62,074 bases of DNA from Ignavibacteria bacterium (GTDB lineage Bacteria > Bacteroidota > Ignavibacteria > Tepidaquicellales > OLB5). Positions within the stretch are counted from its first letter, which is position 1. Each line of letters starts with the position of its first letter. The notes below the pieces were generated by a model. It had not been told where the DNA came from. It ran no database searches and saw only the letters and a program-made list of their open reading frames with translations. Location: contig JANPBV010000381.1 in assembly GCA_031430615.1 (NCBI GenBank), positions 1 to 62,074 on the forward strand. Reading direction: 5' to 3'. Shown here in pieces: positions 3,618-60,822 of the stretch. The position numbers and the translations under genes were made by a program.

Positions 3618-3732
3618 GGTCATGATCCCCTCTAGCTCCCCCTTTCAGGGGGAGAACTAATGTTCATCGCTTTTCTGTACAGACGTCCCGCTGGGACGTC
3701 TCAAAATTTGAAATTCACAATCAGAAAAATTT

Positions 3733-7117: not shown

Positions 7118-7489
7118 ATGAACAATAACGATCAGTTAAATCTATTACGGATATTTTTCCTGATATCGGGAATACTGAACATTCTTTATGGTTTGGGTTG
7201 GTCAGGCTATACAATAATTGGTGGTTTGATAACATGCGGTTTAGGCTGTTTGTTCGGAGCAATACCGGTAATAAATATAATAGCATGTGTTATGGATTTT
7301 GTTTCTTACAACAGGCTTAACAGAATGAACCGCTCAGGAACATATGGTACTTTACAGTTTGCCGCAATATTTGATATAATCTCAATTTTGACAGGAAACG
7401 TTACGAGCATGATATTTGGTATAATTGCCCTGATATTTCTGAATAACGAAGAAGTGAAAAATGAGATGAGGCAAAAAGGGATTTATTGA
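7118..7489 (+). CDS. Small polytopic membrane protein with CGLGC motif, paralog B1
   Basis: 123 aa, about 55% identical by eye to 7563..7934 (LFLISGILN...CGLGC..G..PVIN.IACV.DF..YNRLN...GTY...FAAIFDIISI). Confidence 0.6.
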   Translation: MNNNDQLNLLRIFFLISGILNILYGLGWSGYTIIGGLITCGLGCLFGAIPVINIIACVMDFVSYNRLNRMNRSGTYGTLQFAAIFDIISILTGNVTSMIFGIIALIFLNNEEVKNEMRQKGIY

Positions 7490-7490
7490 T

Positions 7491-7532
7491 GTGAAACGTG
7501 AAATGTTAGAAGTGGAATGCGAAACCTGAAAC
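7491..7532 (+). repeat. Tandem heptamer tract x6 in the 3' UTR
   Basis: gtgaaac gtgaaat gttagaa gtggaat gcgaaac ctgaaac, starting 2 nt after the TGA at 7487-7489. Confidence 0.85.
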
Positions 7533-7562
7533 AATTAATTTGATAATTATCTTAATGAGAAT

Positions 7563-7934
7563 ATGCAATATAATAATCAGTTAAATACTTTAAAAACATT
7601 ATTCCTGATATCAGGGATACTGAACGCAATTTGTATATTTGTATGGTTAGGAAATACTATTTTAGGAGCAGTTGCCTTTTGCGGGTTGGGCTGTGTTATA
7701 GGAATTTTCCCTGTAATAAATGCAATAGCCTGTGTACTGGACTTTATGGTCTACAACAGGCTGAATAAATTTAATAAAACCGGTACTTATAACACTATCA
7801 GGTTCGCAGCAATATTTGATATTATATCAATTGTAACGTTTAATATTACAAGCCTTATTTTCGGGATTATTGCACTCGTAATGATAAGTAAACCTGAAGT
7901 TCAGCAGGAAATGGTTAATAGAGGGATCTATTAA
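7563..7934 (+). CDS. Small polytopic membrane protein with CGLGC motif, paralog B2
   Basis: 123 aa, paralog of 7118..7489. Confidence 0.6.
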   Translation: MQYNNQLNTLKTLFLISGILNAICIFVWLGNTILGAVAFCGLGCVIGIFPVINAIACVLDFMVYNRLNKFNKTGTYNTIRFAAIFDIISIVTFNITSLIFGIIALVMISKPEVQQEMVNRGIY

Positions 7935-7935
7935 C

Positions 7936-7980
7936 GTCAAATGTGAAATGTGAAACGTGAAACGTCAAAAAATGTAAAAC
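7936..7980 (+). repeat. Tandem heptamer tract x5-6 in the 3' UTR
   Basis: gtcaaat gtgaaat gtgaaac gtgaaac gtcaaaa (aat) gtaaaac, starting 2 nt after the TAA at 7932-7934 and running into the terminator. Confidence 0.9.
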
Positions 7981-8005
7981 CCGAAGCTATAAGTTTCGGG
8001 TTTTT
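7976..8005 (+). terminator. Intrinsic terminator
   Basis: aaaacccgaa-gctataagt-ttcgggtttt stem-loop plus T run. Confidence 0.8.
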
Positions 8006-8015
8006 GATATATGCT

Positions 8016-8043
8016 ATTTGACATTTGAGCTTTGGCATTTGAC
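8016..8043 (-). repeat. Tandem heptamer tract x4, minus-strand sense
   Basis: The plus strand reads atttgac atttgag ctttggc atttgac, which is gtcaaat gccaaag ctcaaat gtcaaat on the minus strand. It lies ~75 nt downstream of the minus-strand POT gene stop. Confidence 0.75.
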
Positions 8044-8116
8044 ATTGCAAAAAATGGATCCTTCCTTACTCCTGCTACACAGGATTAAGGCGTGGCACTT
8101 CGTTCAGGATGGAGAA

Positions 8117-9671: not shown

Positions 9672-9770
9672 CCTCACCCCCTGCCCCCTCTCCTTATAGG
9701 AGAGGGGAGCGAAAAGTTTGAATTTTCTTCCCCTCCCTCTCCTCATAGGAGAGGAAGAGGAAGGGTGAGG
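9672..9770. repeat. Composite GC-rich hairpin element (CCTCACCC family)
   Basis: Outer IR cctcaccc...gggtgagg encloses two hairpins, cccctctcct-tata-ggagagggg and cctctcct-cata-ggagagg. Related copies at 17453-17529 and 36935-37035. Confidence 0.85.
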
Positions 9771-9805: not shown

Positions 9806-9886
9806 TTGTTGGTCTTGTGACCAATAACAAAATTATTCGTTAATTTGTTGGTGACAAACTACGGAGCAGTCGTTGCACCAACAAAT
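9806..9886. repeat. Two GTTGGTG/CACCAAC-type inverted repeats (copy 2 of family)
   Basis: ttgttggtc-ttgt-gaccaataa (9806-9830) and atttgttggtg-(22 nt)-caccaacaaat then gg (9843-9886). The loop ...gcagtcgt.gc is shared with 26483-26523. Confidence 0.8.
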
Positions 9887-9947
9887 GGTGAAGTGAGATA
9901 TAAAAACTTTAATGGATCCCCGCCTCCGCGGGGACAAGGCTTAAATA

Positions 9948-16597: not shown

Positions 16598-16623
16598 AAT
16601 TATTATTATTGTGTTCTTTATTT

Positions 16624-16826
16624 GCCGCTCCCGCTGGAGCGGGACAAGCACGGAGGAATTGGCAGAAACTTTCTTTAGCAAGCTAAAGCAAGTCAGGACT
16701 TTCAACTATTGCGTAGTTCCAAGTGAGCCGCGCTAAGTTTTGAAATCCTGTGCAAGAAACATTGTAACGGTGAGACTCCCTGTCATACAGAGCAGTGGTA
16801 ACTGCGAAGAAAGTCGTTTAGCGGCA
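16624..16826 (+). pseudogene. tRNA-Leu-derived degenerate element (acceptor ends retained, core disrupted)
   Basis: Begins gccgctc and ends gtttagcggca (compare the intact tRNA: gccgcca...gtttggcggta). It carries ggaattggcaga (D-loop-like) after a 21-nt hairpin insertion. No anticodon arm. Confidence 0.5.
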
Positions 16827-16845
16827 CAAAAAATACATATCCTAA

Positions 16846-17091
16846 ATGGGCAAATTCTTTGTTTATTGTCTTTATTCAGATTTACATGATAGATTATATA
16901 TAGGTCAGACAGCCAATATTGAAATACGATTTAAGCAACATTGCAATAGTAAGGTGATTTCAACCAGGAGGTATCTTCCATACAGGATAATATATTCTGA
17001 AGAAGTTCCCGATAGAGCCTCATCATTTAGAAGGGAAAAAGAATTAAAAAAATCAGGCAGGAAATTTCTGAGATCTTTAATAAATAAGTAG
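16846..17091 (+). CDS. GIY-YIG nuclease-domain protein (small, stand-alone)
   Basis: 81 aa; FFVYCLYS....LYIGQT.N...R..QH...........P....Y.E.......A..REKELKK = GIY-(10)-YIG, Arg and Glu core motifs. Confidence 0.8.
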   Translation: MGKFFVYCLYSDLHDRLYIGQTANIEIRFKQHCNSKVISTRRYLPYRIIYSEEVPDRASSFRREKELKKSGRKFLRSLINK

Positions 17092-17096
17092 TACTT

Positions 17097-17357
17097 GCCG
17101 CTCCCGCTGAAGCGGGACAAACACGGTCGGAATTGGTAGAACTTTCAACTACTACGTAGTTCCAAGTCAAGGCTTTCAACTGCTTCGCAGTTCCAAGTCA
17201 GGCGCGCTAAGTTTTCATAATTCAGATTTCATTATTTTGTTCTTTTGTACTTGCCGCCATGGCGGAATTGGTAGAAACTTTACACTGCTTCGCAGTTTCA
17301 AGTCAGGCGCGCTAAGTTTTCATAATTCAGATTTCATTATTTTGTTCTTTTGTACTT
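17097..17357 (+). repeat. Tandem units each starting with a tRNA-Leu 5' fragment
   Basis: Unit B (17097-17252) starts gccgctcccgctgaagcgggacaaacacggtcggaattggtaga, 44/49 identical to 16624-16672. Unit C (17253-17357) starts with the exact first 23 nt of the tRNA. 17180-17275 is repeated at 17285-17380 (105-nt period, 1 mismatch). Confidence 0.85.
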
Positions 17358-17441
17358 GCCGCCATGGCGGAATTGGTAGACGCGCTAGACTCAAAATCTA
17401 GTGAGGGCAACTTCGTAACGGTTCGAGTCCGTTTGGCGGTA
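17358..17441 (+). tRNA. tRNA-Leu (anticodon CAA)
   Basis: gccgcca-tg-gcg-gaattggtaga-cgc-g-ctaga-ctCAAaa-tctag-long variable arm-aacgg-ttcgagt-ccgtt-tggcggt-a. Cloverleaf folds by hand; CCA is not encoded. Confidence 0.9.
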
Positions 17442-17452
17442 CAAGATTATAA

Positions 17453-20979: not shown

Positions 20980-21032
20980 GACCCCACCCGCGCAGCACCA
21001 TAGGTGCTGCTTGCCCTCCCCAAAGGGGAGGG
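20980..21032 (+). repeat. GACCCCACCC + double GC-hairpin element directly after the glmS stop
   Basis: gaccccaccc, gcagcacc-ata-ggtgctgc, ccctcccc-aaa-ggggaggg. The first and last modules recur at 60791-60822. Confidence 0.85.
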
Positions 21033-23211: not shown

Positions 23212-23227
23212 TTTTTGGTTTTGTTAA

Positions 23228-23400
23228 ATATGTGCGACTCCTACGGAGTCGTATTAATTTTTCAGCTTTTTTATAAATGTTCAACTCCTACGGAGTTGTT
23301 AAAAACTATATAATACGCTTCTGACTATATGACCGCAGAGCGGTCAAACATTTATAGAAATTAATACGATATAATCCTCACCCCATAGGGGTGACACATA
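23228..23400 (+). repeat. Four-hairpin array, locus 1 (unit order C-D-A-B)
   Basis: Perfect hairpins cgactcc-tac-ggagtcg (23235), caactcc-tac-ggagttg (23282), gaccgc-aga-gcggtc (23331), tcacccc-ata-ggggtga (23378). Centre spacing 47-48 nt. Confidence 0.9.
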
Positions 23401-23581
23401 ATTTTTTTACAAGGAACGGAATGAGTGCTCAATCTTTCTATCTATGGAATTACTTCGTAAAGGCGTGACGTCACTTCGTTCCTCGCAAAAGTATTTCTTA
23501 GTTTGGGAATATCTTTTACATTCCAAAACCCCGGATTATTCCTTATTTTTGTATTACCACAGTTAATTAAATTATACGAAA

Positions 23582-24085
23582 ATGAAAAATATTAGATATT
23601 TATTACCGGTTTTATTTTTATTTATGGGTTTATCAGTGTATGCACAAATGGATGACGGCAAAAAAGATGGTGAAAAACCCGAACCCAAAGAACTTGTTGA
23701 TGGCACTCTATACGGTGCTGATATTACTGCAGGTTCAACCATACTCACGGTCGCTGATATACTTGCTGATACAGCGGGATATTCAGGCAAAACCGTTGTT
23801 GTTAAAGGGAATATGGCAGAAATTTGCAGAGAAGCCGGATGCTGGACAGTCATAGGTGACGGTACAAGCTATATAAGAGCTATGACGCTGCATAAATTCG
23901 TTATGCCAAAGGATATGGATATAACAGGCAAAGTAGCAGTAGTTGAAGGTGTTTTCGCAGTTAAGGAGCTCACCGAAGAGCAGGCAAGGCATTTTGCAGA
24001 GGAATCAGGTAAAGACCCGAAAACAATTACAGGCCCGCAGAAAATGTACAGGGTTGCAGCGACAGGGATTAAGATACTGAAGTGA
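23582..24085 (+). CDS. DUF4920-like secreted protein
   Basis: 167 aa; signal peptide; GKTVVVKGNMAEICREAGCWTVI motif, remembered from DUF4920 proteins of Bacteroidota. Confidence 0.55.
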   Translation: MKNIRYLLPVLFLFMGLSVYAQMDDGKKDGEKPEPKELVDGTLYGADITAGSTILTVADILADTAGYSGKTVVVKGNMAEICREAGCWTVIGDGTSYIRAMTLHKFVMPKDMDITGKVAVVEGVFAVKELTEEQARHFAEESGKDPKTITGPQKMYRVAATGIKILK

Positions 24086-24123
24086 GACGTGAGATGTGAA
24101 ACGTCAAATGTGAAACGTGAAAC
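24082..24123 (+). repeat. Tandem heptamer tract x6 overlapping the stop codon
   Basis: gtgagac gtgagat gtgaaac gtcaaat gtgaaac gtgaaac. The first unit contains the TGA at 24083-24085. The terminator follows 8 nt later. Confidence 0.9.
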
Positions 24124-24130
24124 GAATTTG

Positions 24131-26453: not shown

Positions 26454-26482
26454 GATATTTAAATTTATATTAAAACTTTATT

Positions 26483-26523
26483 AGTTGTTGGTGAACTGCC
26501 GGGCAGTCGTGGCACCAACAACT
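26483..26523. repeat. GTTGTTGGTG...CACCAACAAC inverted-repeat element (copy 3)
   Basis: agttgttggtg-aactgccgggcagtcgtgg-caccaacaact then gg, 30 nt upstream of the M28 start (minus strand). Confidence 0.85.
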
Positions 26524-26573
26524 GGGAAAATGTGCAACTCCTATTGAGTTGATGAAAAAATTAACTACAAGCA

Positions 26574-26605
26574 GCATTGACACAGTCAATGCACTCCAAA
26601 AAAAG
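26574..26605 (+). repeat. GCATTGAC/GTCAATGC hairpin + TCCAAAAAAAG element
   Basis: gcattgac-aca-gtcaatgc-actccaaaaaaag. Related copy at 42429-42473. Confidence 0.7.
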
Positions 26606-26680
26606 CAGTTGATAAGTTGTAACTTGTATTATGCATTAACATAGTCAATGCATACAAAGAAAAGCCAAAAAAAAATTGAT

Positions 26681-30147: not shown

Positions 30148-30368
30148 TGAAGCTATCTAAAAACCTTTTAAAAATCTATCAATCAAAACAAAATTAATAC
30201 ACAGGTTCAAAATCCCCCCTTTGCTAAAGGGGGGACAGACTCTTTAGTTTTAGTTATTCTTCAATTAATCTTAAAATAAAATCTTTAATAAATTTTCAAT
30301 GAGGGTTCTGCTTTTTCTTATCCGCATAATCCCTAATTTCAAATTATTATTCAATTCTTAATTCGTAA

Positions 30369-36934: not shown

Positions 36935-37035
36935 CCTCACCCCCATCCCCTCTCCTATAAGGAGAGGGGGGATAAACCTGATAATAAAAGGTATGGACTC
37001 CCCTCTCCCAATGGGAGAGAGGTAAGAGGTAAGGG
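36935..37035. repeat. Composite GC-rich hairpin element (CCTCACCC family)
   Basis: cctcaccccc-at-cccctctcct-ataa-ggagagggg ... ctcccctctccc-aat-gggagagag-gtaagaggtaaggg. Confidence 0.85.
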
Positions 37036-42428: not shown

Positions 42429-42473
42429 GCATTGACAACATAAAGTCAAGTAGTCAATGCATTCCAAAAAAAG
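42429..42473 (+). repeat. GCATTGAC/GTCAATGC hairpin + TCCAAAAAAAG element
   Basis: gcattgac-(16 nt)-gtcaatgc-attccaaaaaaag, ending 5 nt before the ATG at 42478. Related to 26574-26605. Confidence 0.7.
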
Positions 42474-42477
42474 ATAA

Positions 42478-43170: not shown

Positions 43171-43243
43171 ATGCTATTATCAATAATTGCTTAAGGAAAT
43201 AATAATTCTAAAATCCCTAATTTAATTTAGCTCAATCAAAAAA

Positions 43244-43405
43244 ATGACTCCGTAGGAGTCAAATGTTTATAGAAAAATTTGAAATGATGAATTGACCCCA
43301 TAGGGGTCAAACATGAAACAACATTTATACATATGTGCGACTCCTATGGAGTCGAAACAGAAATCAAACAAAAATCTATAAACGTTCAACTCCTACGGAG
43401 TTGAA
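43244..43405 (+). repeat. Four-hairpin array, locus 2 (unit order A-B-C-D)
   Basis: tgactcc-gta-ggagtca (43244), ttgacccc-ata-ggggtcaa (43291), cgactcc-tat-ggagtcg (43337), caactcc-tac-ggagttg (43386). Confidence 0.9.
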
Positions 43406-43480
43406 TTCTTTTCTTTGGATACCTTCCTTCGCCAAGGCTCAGTAAGGCTTACCCGCTTTCTCGGGGTATGATATTTACAC

Positions 43481-43994: not shown

Positions 43995-44018
43995 GTTGTT
44001 GGTGACAACACCAACAAC
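43995..44018. repeat. GTTGTTGGTG...CACCAACAAC inverted-repeat element (copy 4, short form)
   Basis: gttgttggtg-acaa-caccaacaac then tgg, 32 nt upstream of the YARHG gene start. Confidence 0.85.
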
Positions 44019-44038
44019 TGGATAATCGTCTATTAGAT

Positions 44039-44066
44039 ATTTTGATTTTGACATTTGACATTTTGA
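44039..44066 (-). repeat. Tandem heptamer tract x4, minus-strand sense
   Basis: The minus strand reads tcaaaat gtcaaat gtcaaaa tcaaaat, starting 2 nt after the TAA (44068-44070) of the lipoprotein gene. Confidence 0.8.
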
Positions 44067-45917: not shown

Positions 45918-46036
45918 ATATAGACATCATAACAACTTTCCCATAAGTACATTACTTTCAGTTCAAAGTGGATCGATAAAGCAATTAAATGCACACCCCG
46001 TCTTTAATCATTACTGCCTATTGGTGAATTTTTATT

Positions 46037-46200
46037 ATGACTCCATGGGAGTCATACATTTATAGACTATGGCCTTTAAAAAAAATGACCCCGTAGGGGT
46101 CACACATAATATATAATTTATTCAAACGTGCGACTCCTATGGAGTCGAAATAGAAATCTATTAAAAATCTATAAAGGTGCAACTCCTTCGGAGTTGAATT
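46037..46200 (+). repeat. Four-hairpin array, locus 3 (unit order A-B-C-D)
   Basis: atgactcc-atg-ggagtcat (46037), tgacccc-gta-ggggtca (46086), cgactcc-tat-ggagtcg (46131), caactcc-ttc-ggagttg (46180). Collinear with locus 2. Confidence 0.9.
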
Positions 46201-60790: not shown

Positions 60791-60822
60791 GACCCCACCC
60801 TAACCCTCCCCAAAGGGGAGGG
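60791..60822 (+). repeat. GACCCCACCC + CCCTCCCC-AAA-GGGGAGGG hairpin after the tail-tube stop
   Basis: gaccccaccc-taa-ccctccccaaaggggaggg. Same modules as 20980-21032 after glmS. Confidence 0.85.

Follow-up and report, generated by a model that had tools for sequence, protein, structure and literature searches.

Hairpin arrays in an Ignavibacteria contig: probable REP-like repeats with a candidate partner among subclass 1.2 Y1 transposases

Contig JANPBV010000381.1 of an Ignavibacteria bacterium (assembly GCA_031430615.1), analysed here over positions 1 to 62,074 (62,074 nt, G+C 36%; hereafter the window), carries three arrays of four short hairpins, almost evenly spaced. What is the repeated object in these arrays, and what might spread and maintain it? 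The answer that we favour, at a probability of about 0.78, is that the arrays are clusters of a palindromic repeat of the repetitive extragenic palindrome (REP) kind. They are best read as gene-less derivatives, resembling REPs or REPINs (REP doublets forming hairpins), of a system whose enzyme is a Y1 transposase of subclass 1.2.

Anatomy of the arrays

The window holds twelve perfect hairpins with stems of 7-9 bp and 3-nt loops, grouped in three arrays (loci 1-3) with hairpin centres 45-49 nt apart. The four units of locus 1, the array on which the original prediction was centred, are as follows.

23235-23251: locus 1 unit C, CGACTCC-tac-GGAGTCG, 7-bp perfect hairpin
23282-23298: locus 1 unit D, CAACTCC-tac-GGAGTTG, 7-bp perfect hairpin
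23330-23346: locus 1 unit A, TGACCGC-aga-GCGGTCA, 7-bp perfect hairpin
23378-23394: locus 1 unit B, TCACCCC-ata-GGGGTGA, 7-bp perfect hairpin

Centre-to-centre distances of 47, 48 and 48 nt agree with the 47-48 nt that had been claimed, and the four hairpins are perfect and lie where they had been placed; only the stem of unit A, given as 6 bp, turned out to be 7 bp long. The other two arrays, at 43245-43405 (locus 2) and 46036-46196 (locus 3), follow the order A, B, C, D, their hairpins 48, 45 and 49 nt apart. Both this order and the identities assigned to the units are borne out by the sequences, and the flanking words quoted in support of them are present. Loci 2 and 3 are 85% identical across 201 columns, spacers counted in.

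Chance origin of the hairpins is excluded. The window contains 30 perfect hairpins with stems of 7 bp or more and 3-nt loops, where simulated sequence has 7.0 +/- 2.6, and the GC-rich subset numbers 23 against 0.5. The pattern RACYCCNNNGGRGTY, allowing up to two mismatches, matches the window 22 times, compared with 8.2 +/- 3.0 times in shuffles.

Locus 1 had been described as a circular permutation of the other two arrays. This description does not hold once all twelve units are written on both strands. Taking the reverse complement turns unit D into an A-type unit, with its hairpin and the tail nACATTTATAGA (the tail after the A-type hairpin has the general form (a/c)AC(a/g)TTTATAGA), and unit C into a B-type unit, with its hairpin and CACATA. 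What is repeated is therefore a module of two hairpins and about 80 nt, A>B>, arranged as A>B><B'<A' in loci 2 and 3 and as <B'<A'A>B> in locus 1. The arrays are thus the two possible kinds of inverted dimer of one module. The orientation scores of a covariance model (R1), seeded with modules found by DNA pattern, agree: R1 picks out precisely six modules in the window, which reach 71-79 bits as oriented here and 26-41 bits on the other strand, the high scores being a matter of construction because the six window modules are among the seeds. The modules are listed below, together with one decayed remnant.

23225..23302, minus strand: locus 1 reverse module (C, D; <B' <A'); 74.5 bits on the minus strand, 32.6 on the plus strand; hairpins 23235-23251 and 23282-23298; tail TTATAAATGTT 5' of D on the plus strand
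23326..23404, plus strand: locus 1 forward module (A, B); 72.1 bits on the plus strand, 26.2 on the minus strand; hairpins 23330-23346 (GACCGC variant) and 23378-23394 (TCACCCC variant); tails AACATTTATAGA and CACATAAT
43241..43319, plus strand: locus 2 forward module (A, B); 78.9 bits; hairpins 43245-43261 and 43292-43310
43328..43407, minus strand: locus 2 reverse module (C, D); 71.7 bits on the minus strand; hairpins 43338-43354 and 43385-43405
46034..46112, plus strand: locus 3 forward module (A, B); 72.0 bits; hairpins 46036-46056 and 46086-46102
46121..46200, minus strand: locus 3 reverse module (C, D); 71.4 bits on the minus strand; hairpins 46131-46147 and 46180-46196
26517..26555, minus strand: decayed remnant of a reverse module; 15.5 bits, E = 0.21; CAACTCC-tat-TGAGTTG with one stem mismatch

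The consensus drawn from 53 aligned modules (A2) is nGACTCC-RNA-GGAGTCn (a/c)a(t/c)(g/a)TTTATAG N~20 nGAC(C/T)CC-RNN-GG(G/A)GTCn (a/c)AC. Hairpin 1 comes first in the module and is followed by the conserved 3' tail (n)A(c/t)(a/g)TTTATAG; some 20 nt of variable sequence then lead to hairpin 2, after which stands the short tail CACAT. In Bacteroidia, the inter-hairpin sequence of many copies is a palindrome too (ATGTTTATAG...CTATAAACAT). A conserved 5' GTAG foot is absent; conserved instead is the 3' tail N4-TTTATAG, for which relatives also show TTTGTAG and GGTAG. Read on the strand with TTTATAG downstream, the loops of hairpin 1 are GTA (34), GGA (20), AGA (15), GAA (12) and AGC (10), whereas the complementary loops are scarce (TAC 0, TCC 1, TCT 2). 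This asymmetry indicates that the function belongs to one single strand. Folded as single-stranded DNA, locus 2 forms a long REPIN-like hairpin (-38 kcal/mol, z = -8.9) in which A pairs with D and the tails of both pair, while B and C fold locally. The single-strand fold of locus 1 has z = -8.3.

A Y1 gene beside the modules in relatives

A collection of species-representative genomes was scanned with a 26-nt pattern (ACTCCNNNGGAGTYRNNNNTTTATAR), for which about 35 chance matches are estimated in the whole collection, and yielded at least 118 genome loci. Among the loci listed, nearly all are from Bacteroidota (Mucilaginibacter, Chitinophagaceae, Cytophagaceae, Cyclobacteriaceae, Lentimicrobium, Bacteroidales) and Ignavibacteria, with a few from Marinimicrobia, Armatimonadota and Pyrinomonadaceae; several metagenome-assembled genomes (MAGs) contribute two to five loci each among the matches listed. 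A second perfect hairpin, typically CGACCCC-nnn-GGGGTCG or GGCTCC-nnn-GGAGCC, follows downstream in 65 of 126 fully flanked matches (window included), usually about 43-53 nt from the first. Nearly all matches (130 of 134, window and genome loci together) lie outside open reading frames (ORFs). At six modules in 62 kb, the window is richer in them than is usual. Two further concentrations were seen. At L092 5930-6640, in the Ignavibacteria MAG BA6, A>B> sits inside a 261-nt unit present in three tandem copies, which also holds other small hairpins (ACCTGC-cttc-GCAGGT and TCC..TTTATAAGGA). At L130 2059-3356, on metagenome contig Ga0209572_1005463, about a dozen forward modules run head to tail over 1.3 kb downstream of a Y1 gene, a series much longer than any other array observed.

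We clustered the ORFs within 3 kb of modules across the 118 loci. The largest cluster is a protein of 144-185 aa encoded at a median distance of 105 nt from a module, and among the loci listed it is the sole protein family that recurs beside modules. It matches Pfam Y1_Tnp with E = 1e-25 to 1e-30. An alignment of these proteins (A3; 144-175 aa) shows DHIH/DHVH, NWQ and YI(I/K/Q)NQE(x)HH, followed by a conserved C-terminal EEY..FL...YDEKYLF. Quentin et al. (2018; PMC6006769) describe Y1 subclass 1.2 by DH[IV]H, WQ and Y---Q--HH, a length of about 150 aa and a conserved C-terminal domain. The partner protein has the matching signature (DH[IV]H / WQ / YIKNQKEHH), length (~150 aa) and C-terminal extension, and shares with that subclass a low copy number and an occurrence in Bacteroidetes (PMC6006769). 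On these sequence features we assign it to the Y1 HUH transposases, subclass 1.2 of Quentin et al. (2018; PMC6006769).

The search for a Y1 transposase partner, which the original prediction had suggested, was decisive in that an oriented Y1 gene was found in relatives. This gene is of IS200 type. Its product passes the IS200/IS605 model NF033573 of NCBIfam (75 bits, cut-off 55) and falls below the cut-off of NF047646, the model for REP-associated tyrosine transposases (RAYTs; 32 bits, cut-off 80). ISDra2 TnpA and IS608 TnpA are the nearest solved structures, and the E. coli RAYT is not among its PDB matches. A canonical RAYT as the partner was rejected: a regular-expression search for HUH/Y motifs in the window and the 118 loci returned the IS200-type gene only, and the REPs tabulated for Bacteroidetes RAYTs of subclass 2.6 include no GACTCC or GACCCC stems. 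No tnpB accompanies the Y1 gene. At E <= 1e-20 the family counts 7,880 proteins, most of them in single-member clusters; its 90%-identity clusters hold one to few members each, which indicates a low copy number.

The modules bracket the gene in five of six loci, with A>B> finishing 10-30 nt short of the ATG and, on the other side, a hairpin or module in inverted orientation beginning at the stop codon or immediately after it. The junction seen in locus 1, <B'<A'A>B>, also adjoins a Y1 gene in two loci (L020, L057). The association was tested independently with the Y1 protein rather than the DNA as bait. In a metagenome collection this gave at least 583 confirmed relatives, from which 80 loci were retained. 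As a unit we counted, in simple terms, any hairpin whose stem is perfect, 5 bp or longer and closed by CC/GG, whose loop has 3-4 nt and which bears an RTAG/TATAA tail. Up to 200 nt upstream of the Y1 gene there are 61 forward and 10 reverse units; over the same distance downstream there are 16 forward and 56 reverse. At least one unit is present in 65 of the 76 loci that have both flanks, and the full pair, forward upstream and reverse downstream, in 33. The background more than 800 nt from the gene in these loci is 3 units per 156 kb. R1 gives the same picture. Its matches within 150 nt of the gene lie on the plus strand in 50 of 56 cases upstream and on the minus strand in 49 of 57 cases downstream, and 63 of the 80 loci have a correctly oriented flanking module, forward just upstream and/or inverted just downstream. 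The stem type is the same on both flanks in 41 of 55 loci, compared with 21.8 (maximum 29) after shuffling. The tail differs by lineage (TTTATAG, TTTGTAG, TGGTAG, CGGTAG, TCTATAG), yet it ends in RTAG. Hairpin type shows a weak trend with protein identity across the Y1 loci (61% vs 56% identity). The flanks of the Y1 gene thus have a layout like that of a REPtron.

The modules adjoining Y1 genes also provided a sample for covariation. A first count on alignment A2 was biased, its seeds having been chosen for perfect hairpins, and was hence redone on 87 distinct Y1-adjacent modules in an alignment that is itself fitted to the model. In this sample 91.5% of cells are paired, as against 69.5% after shuffling and 35-44% with slid partners. 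Compensatory changes on both sides occur at 14 of 14 pairs, with 294 double-change cells where 96 are expected. These substitution patterns indicate that the base pairing of the hairpins is under selection. The claim that pairing is conserved while the stems drift, first made from three loci, is thereby supported on 87 independent sequences. The paired changes on which it rested are real (GACTCC/GGAGTC to GACCGC/GCGGTC in unit A, TGACCCC/GGGGTCA to TCACCCC/GGGGTGA in unit B).

Gene and repeats behave differently between relatives. In Chitinophagaceae the Y1 gene occupies one syntenic site in nine loci (L020, L076, L103, L107, L119-L123), where its neighbours, as we read their translations, appear to be an aminotransferase-like and a permease-like gene. 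In Ignavibacteria (L200-L205) it lies between a solute symporter (SSF) gene and ftsX-sdhC-hc1-lepA, and the proteins are 82-95% identical to the L057 query. There the 20-kb loci hold modules on both sides of the gene and none elsewhere. That diverged genomes have the gene at one site indicates its vertical inheritance. In MAG BA6 the gene (L201) and dispersed modules (L037, L092) occur together. The window, which is syntenic with contigs of three Ignavibacteria MAGs at 74-83% nucleotide identity, allows the repeats themselves to be followed. The locus 1 array is conserved in one MAG (L085) with its variant stems. In another (L019), unrelated hairpins and no arrays stand where the window has loci 2 and 3, and the interval between the two YARHG genes, free of modules in the window, holds a C-D module. 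At the site orthologous to the decayed copy at 26517-26555, the C-D module of L021 is intact. Repeats are therefore gained, lost and decayed between relatives while the gene stays at its site.

What the arrays may be

In the reading that we favour, loci 2 and 3 would be the two ends of a REPtron minus its gene, similar to a REPIN or to a MITE (miniature inverted-repeat transposable element), and locus 1 would be the opposite junction. A Y1 enzyme encoded elsewhere in the genome would bind the hairpins in single-stranded form, on the DNA strand whose loops begin with a purine and which bears the RTAG tail. It would cut and rejoin at a nearby short motif, probably the RTAG tail itself, and by copying or moving modules in this way it may both spread and maintain them. 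These steps are modelled on IS608 and ISDra2 TnpA and on E. coli TnpA-REP (PMC3333891, PMC3479197 and PMC5027513). For the host, the arrays might have the side effect of stopping transcription or protecting mRNA 3' ends. Such an effect is plausible because the arrays lie at gene 3' ends and T runs follow some of the outer hairpins.

Several properties are those of the REPs, bacterial interspersed mosaic elements (BIMEs) and REPINs of E. coli and Pseudomonas and their RAYTs. The modules are short GC-rich extragenic palindromes dispersed between genes, mostly after them, and they form inverted clusters of both dimer kinds. Their stems are kept by compensatory change, copies come and go between relatives, and a single low-copy, vertically inherited Y1 HUH gene lies between inverted copies. 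Unlike RAYTs, which are class 2, the partner is of IS200 type (class 1, subclass 1.2). Unlike REPs, the modules lack a GT[AG]G 5' foot and carry an RTAG-ending tail (TTTATAG, TTTGTAG, GGTAG) 3' of the hairpin on the purine-first-loop strand; the unit of repetition is a two-hairpin module, and stem sequences are common to several phyla. The original prediction had named ordinary REP/BIME clusters tied to a RAYT gene as a competing outcome, and this is essentially what was found, with an IS200-type Y1 gene in place of a canonical RAYT. REPs beside the subclass 2.6 RAYTs of Bacteroidetes (Table S1 of PMC6006769) likewise have perfect 6-10-bp stems and 3-nt loops, but differ in their stems, which are of other types, in having a 5' foot such as GCTAG and in the Y1 subclass that they adjoin.

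Five points weigh against this reading. No Y1 gene was found within the 62-kb window, nor is the syntenic Ignavibacteria site (SSF-Y1-FtsX-LepA) within it, so that a cognate enzyme in the source organism is putative. Mobilisation of single-stranded DNA by a Y1 enzyme is inferred by analogy. Stem sequences are conserved across phyla to a degree well beyond that of typical REPs, which as a rule vary from one species to the next. The Y1-bearing loci hold few dispersed copies at a distance from the gene (the 3 per 156 kb given above, and none in four 20-kb Ignavibacteria loci), and amplification is therefore not general. Finally, modules lie on the same strand as the upstream gene in 61 cases and on the opposite strand in 33, a bias that a role at the level of RNA would fit too; orientation bears no relation to the downstream gene (49 vs 45).

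This last bias, together with the rarity of modules between divergent genes (7 of 94), the covarying stems and the strand-asymmetric loops, is what would be said for the modules as parts of a structured RNA, either a multi-hairpin small RNA or a protein-bound element of 3' untranslated regions. We consider such an RNA unlikely. Every array in the window contains both orientations, so that half of the units would be antisense in any transcript. Rfam offers no family at its gathering score and, even at E <= 10, only a chance miRNA-like match on both strands (46087-46146). That modules bracket a transposase gene in a fixed orientation is not what one would expect of an RNA gene, and the orientation bias could be indirect if genes and elements are both oriented relative to replication. 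The loops, moreover, are triloops of the G-N-A kind, which are typical of stable DNA hairpins rather than of RNA tetraloops.

Still less probable, in our judgement, is that the hairpins are ordinary intrinsic (bidirectional) terminators that are alike merely in the way that terminators are. All three arrays do follow gene 3' ends, with locus 2 between convergent genes. A terminator scan flags outer hairpins with T-rich tails at 43245-43261 (minus strand), 43384-43406 (plus strand) and 46085-46103 (minus strand), and many other GC-rich hairpins with 3-nt loops stand after genes in the window. Termination, however, needs neither a fixed stem sequence nor a TTTATAG tail, a spacing of about 48 nt or four hairpins in a row. 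Most units lack a T run, and the same sequences recur across phyla, flanking a Y1 gene in fixed orientation. It is plausible that termination is a secondary effect of the arrays and not their origin.

We give very little credence to a third explanation, in which the flanked Y1 gene is an ordinary autonomous insertion sequence of the IS200 family, the window arrays are its recent MITE derivatives and no domesticated REP-type system exists. The gene-bearing relatives share the transposase family of IS200/IS605 elements such as IS608 and ISDra2 and their MITE-like derivatives (Pfam Y1_Tnp, NCBIfam NF033573); the failure of the RAYT model and the closest solved structures favour this explanation as well. 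Another likeness is the subterminal hairpins beside a conserved short motif, the presumed recognition elements. IS200/IS605 ends, however, carry their hairpins on the same strand. The two ends seen here are inverted repeats of each other, with several modules per flank, and no tnpB is present. The same syntenic site across diverged genomes argues for vertical inheritance, and the 90%-identity clusters of one to few members argue for low copy number, which Quentin et al. (2018; PMC6006769) also report for subclass 1.2.

Other candidates were set aside. A sigma-70-type promoter reading of TGAC...N18...TATAGA finds no support, since a promoter scan is blank at the arrays and shows no overall excess; CGTC-tagged REPs (PMC3733652), with 8-9-bp stems, 4-5-nt loops and a CCA tail, do not fit; and a collection of viral contigs gave one pattern match only, which speaks against a phage origin. 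The arrays share with CRISPR arrays short palindromic repeats and a regular period of about 47 nt. The original prediction was right that conserved spacers (85% between loci) set them apart, although even the CRISPR-like layout is superficial, there being four different units in two orientations. Cas genes are absent near the arrays, and no CRISPR repeat model matches there.

A transposase domesticated along with its miniature repeats has its textbook case in REPs and RAYTs. To our knowledge, REP-RAYT systems have so far been tied to class 2 Y1 proteins and a 5' GTAG signal. Our literature search found no earlier description of the module repeat, nor of REPs for Y1 subclass 1.2, and the one survey found, that of Quentin et al. 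(2018; PMC6006769), records no REPs for this subclass, unlike the 63-65 of about 80 genes here that have flanking hairpin modules. The finding is apparently an unreported pairing of a palindromic repeat with its Y1 enzyme, ordinary in principle and unusual in its conservation across phyla. We regard it as an even question whether the modules and the subclass 1.2 Y1 gene go further and represent an ancient, vertically inherited and undescribed REP-type system that arose from the IS200 branch (class 1) independently of the class 2 RAYTs, extends over Bacteroidota, Ignavibacteriota and other phyla, and has kept its recognition hairpins across them. If so, the partnership of transposase and repeat evolved more than once, the second system being distinguished by an IS200-type enzyme, a signal of hairpin plus 3' tail and unusually conserved stems. 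A family of over 7,000 proteins, annotated at present as 'IS200/IS605 transposase', would gain a concrete DNA partner. In practice, the modules explain much of the intergenic hairpin content of Ignavibacteria and Bacteroidota genomes, and such hairpins should not be annotated as CRISPR-like arrays, small RNAs or plain terminators.

Other repeats in the window

The genes of the window are ordinary chromosomal ones (proteins with type IX secretion system (T9SS) tails, an M28 peptidase, DsbD_2, YARHG, DUF2306, TonB_C), and several further repeats lie among them. Palindromes with the arms GTTGTTGGTG / CACCAACAAC occur at 9840-9895, 26477-26532 and 43995-44018. These arms are tabulated as a REP adjoining a subclass 2.6 RAYT of Runella slithyformis (AEI49282.1; Table S1 of PMC6006769), and the source genome may thus contain a second REP family. 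A further repeat consists of the hairpin GCATTGAC-aca-GTCAATGC followed by ACTCCAAAAAAAGC, in three copies (26574-26606, 26633-26665 and 42442-42474), the last of which stops 4 nt ahead of the start of the DsbD_2 gene.

A second family of hairpins with 3-nt loops has one arm of C and T only and the other of G and A only, for example CCCCTCTCCT-tat-AGGAGAGGGG and CCCTCCCC-aaa-GGGGAGGG. Its members mostly stand directly after gene 3' ends, some of them paired about 50 nt apart:

3636-3654: C/T-arm and G/A-arm hairpin
9685-9707: C/T-arm and G/A-arm hairpin
9736-9754: C/T-arm and G/A-arm hairpin
21014-21032: C/T-arm and G/A-arm hairpin
30213-30235: C/T-arm and G/A-arm hairpin
36947-36969: C/T-arm and G/A-arm hairpin
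37003-37019: C/T-arm and G/A-arm hairpin
60804-60822: C/T-arm and G/A-arm hairpin

Direct runs of heptamers (GTGAAAC / GTGAAAT / GTCAAAC), 3-6 in each, start at or directly after the stop codon of six genes and are always in the sense direction relative to their gene. We offer no explanation for them.

547-586: heptamer run
7489-7540: heptamer run
7933-7969: heptamer run
8003-8046: heptamer run
24082-24124: heptamer run
44026-44063: heptamer run

The 5' part of the tRNA-Leu(CAA) gene (17358-17442) is repeated upstream of it, within 16619-17442. The copies comprise a 105-nt tandem at 17179-17380 (98% identical) and older ones at 16619-16741 and 17092-17215, and between them lies a small ORF for a GIY-YIG nuclease (16846-17091; Pfam E = 9e-13).

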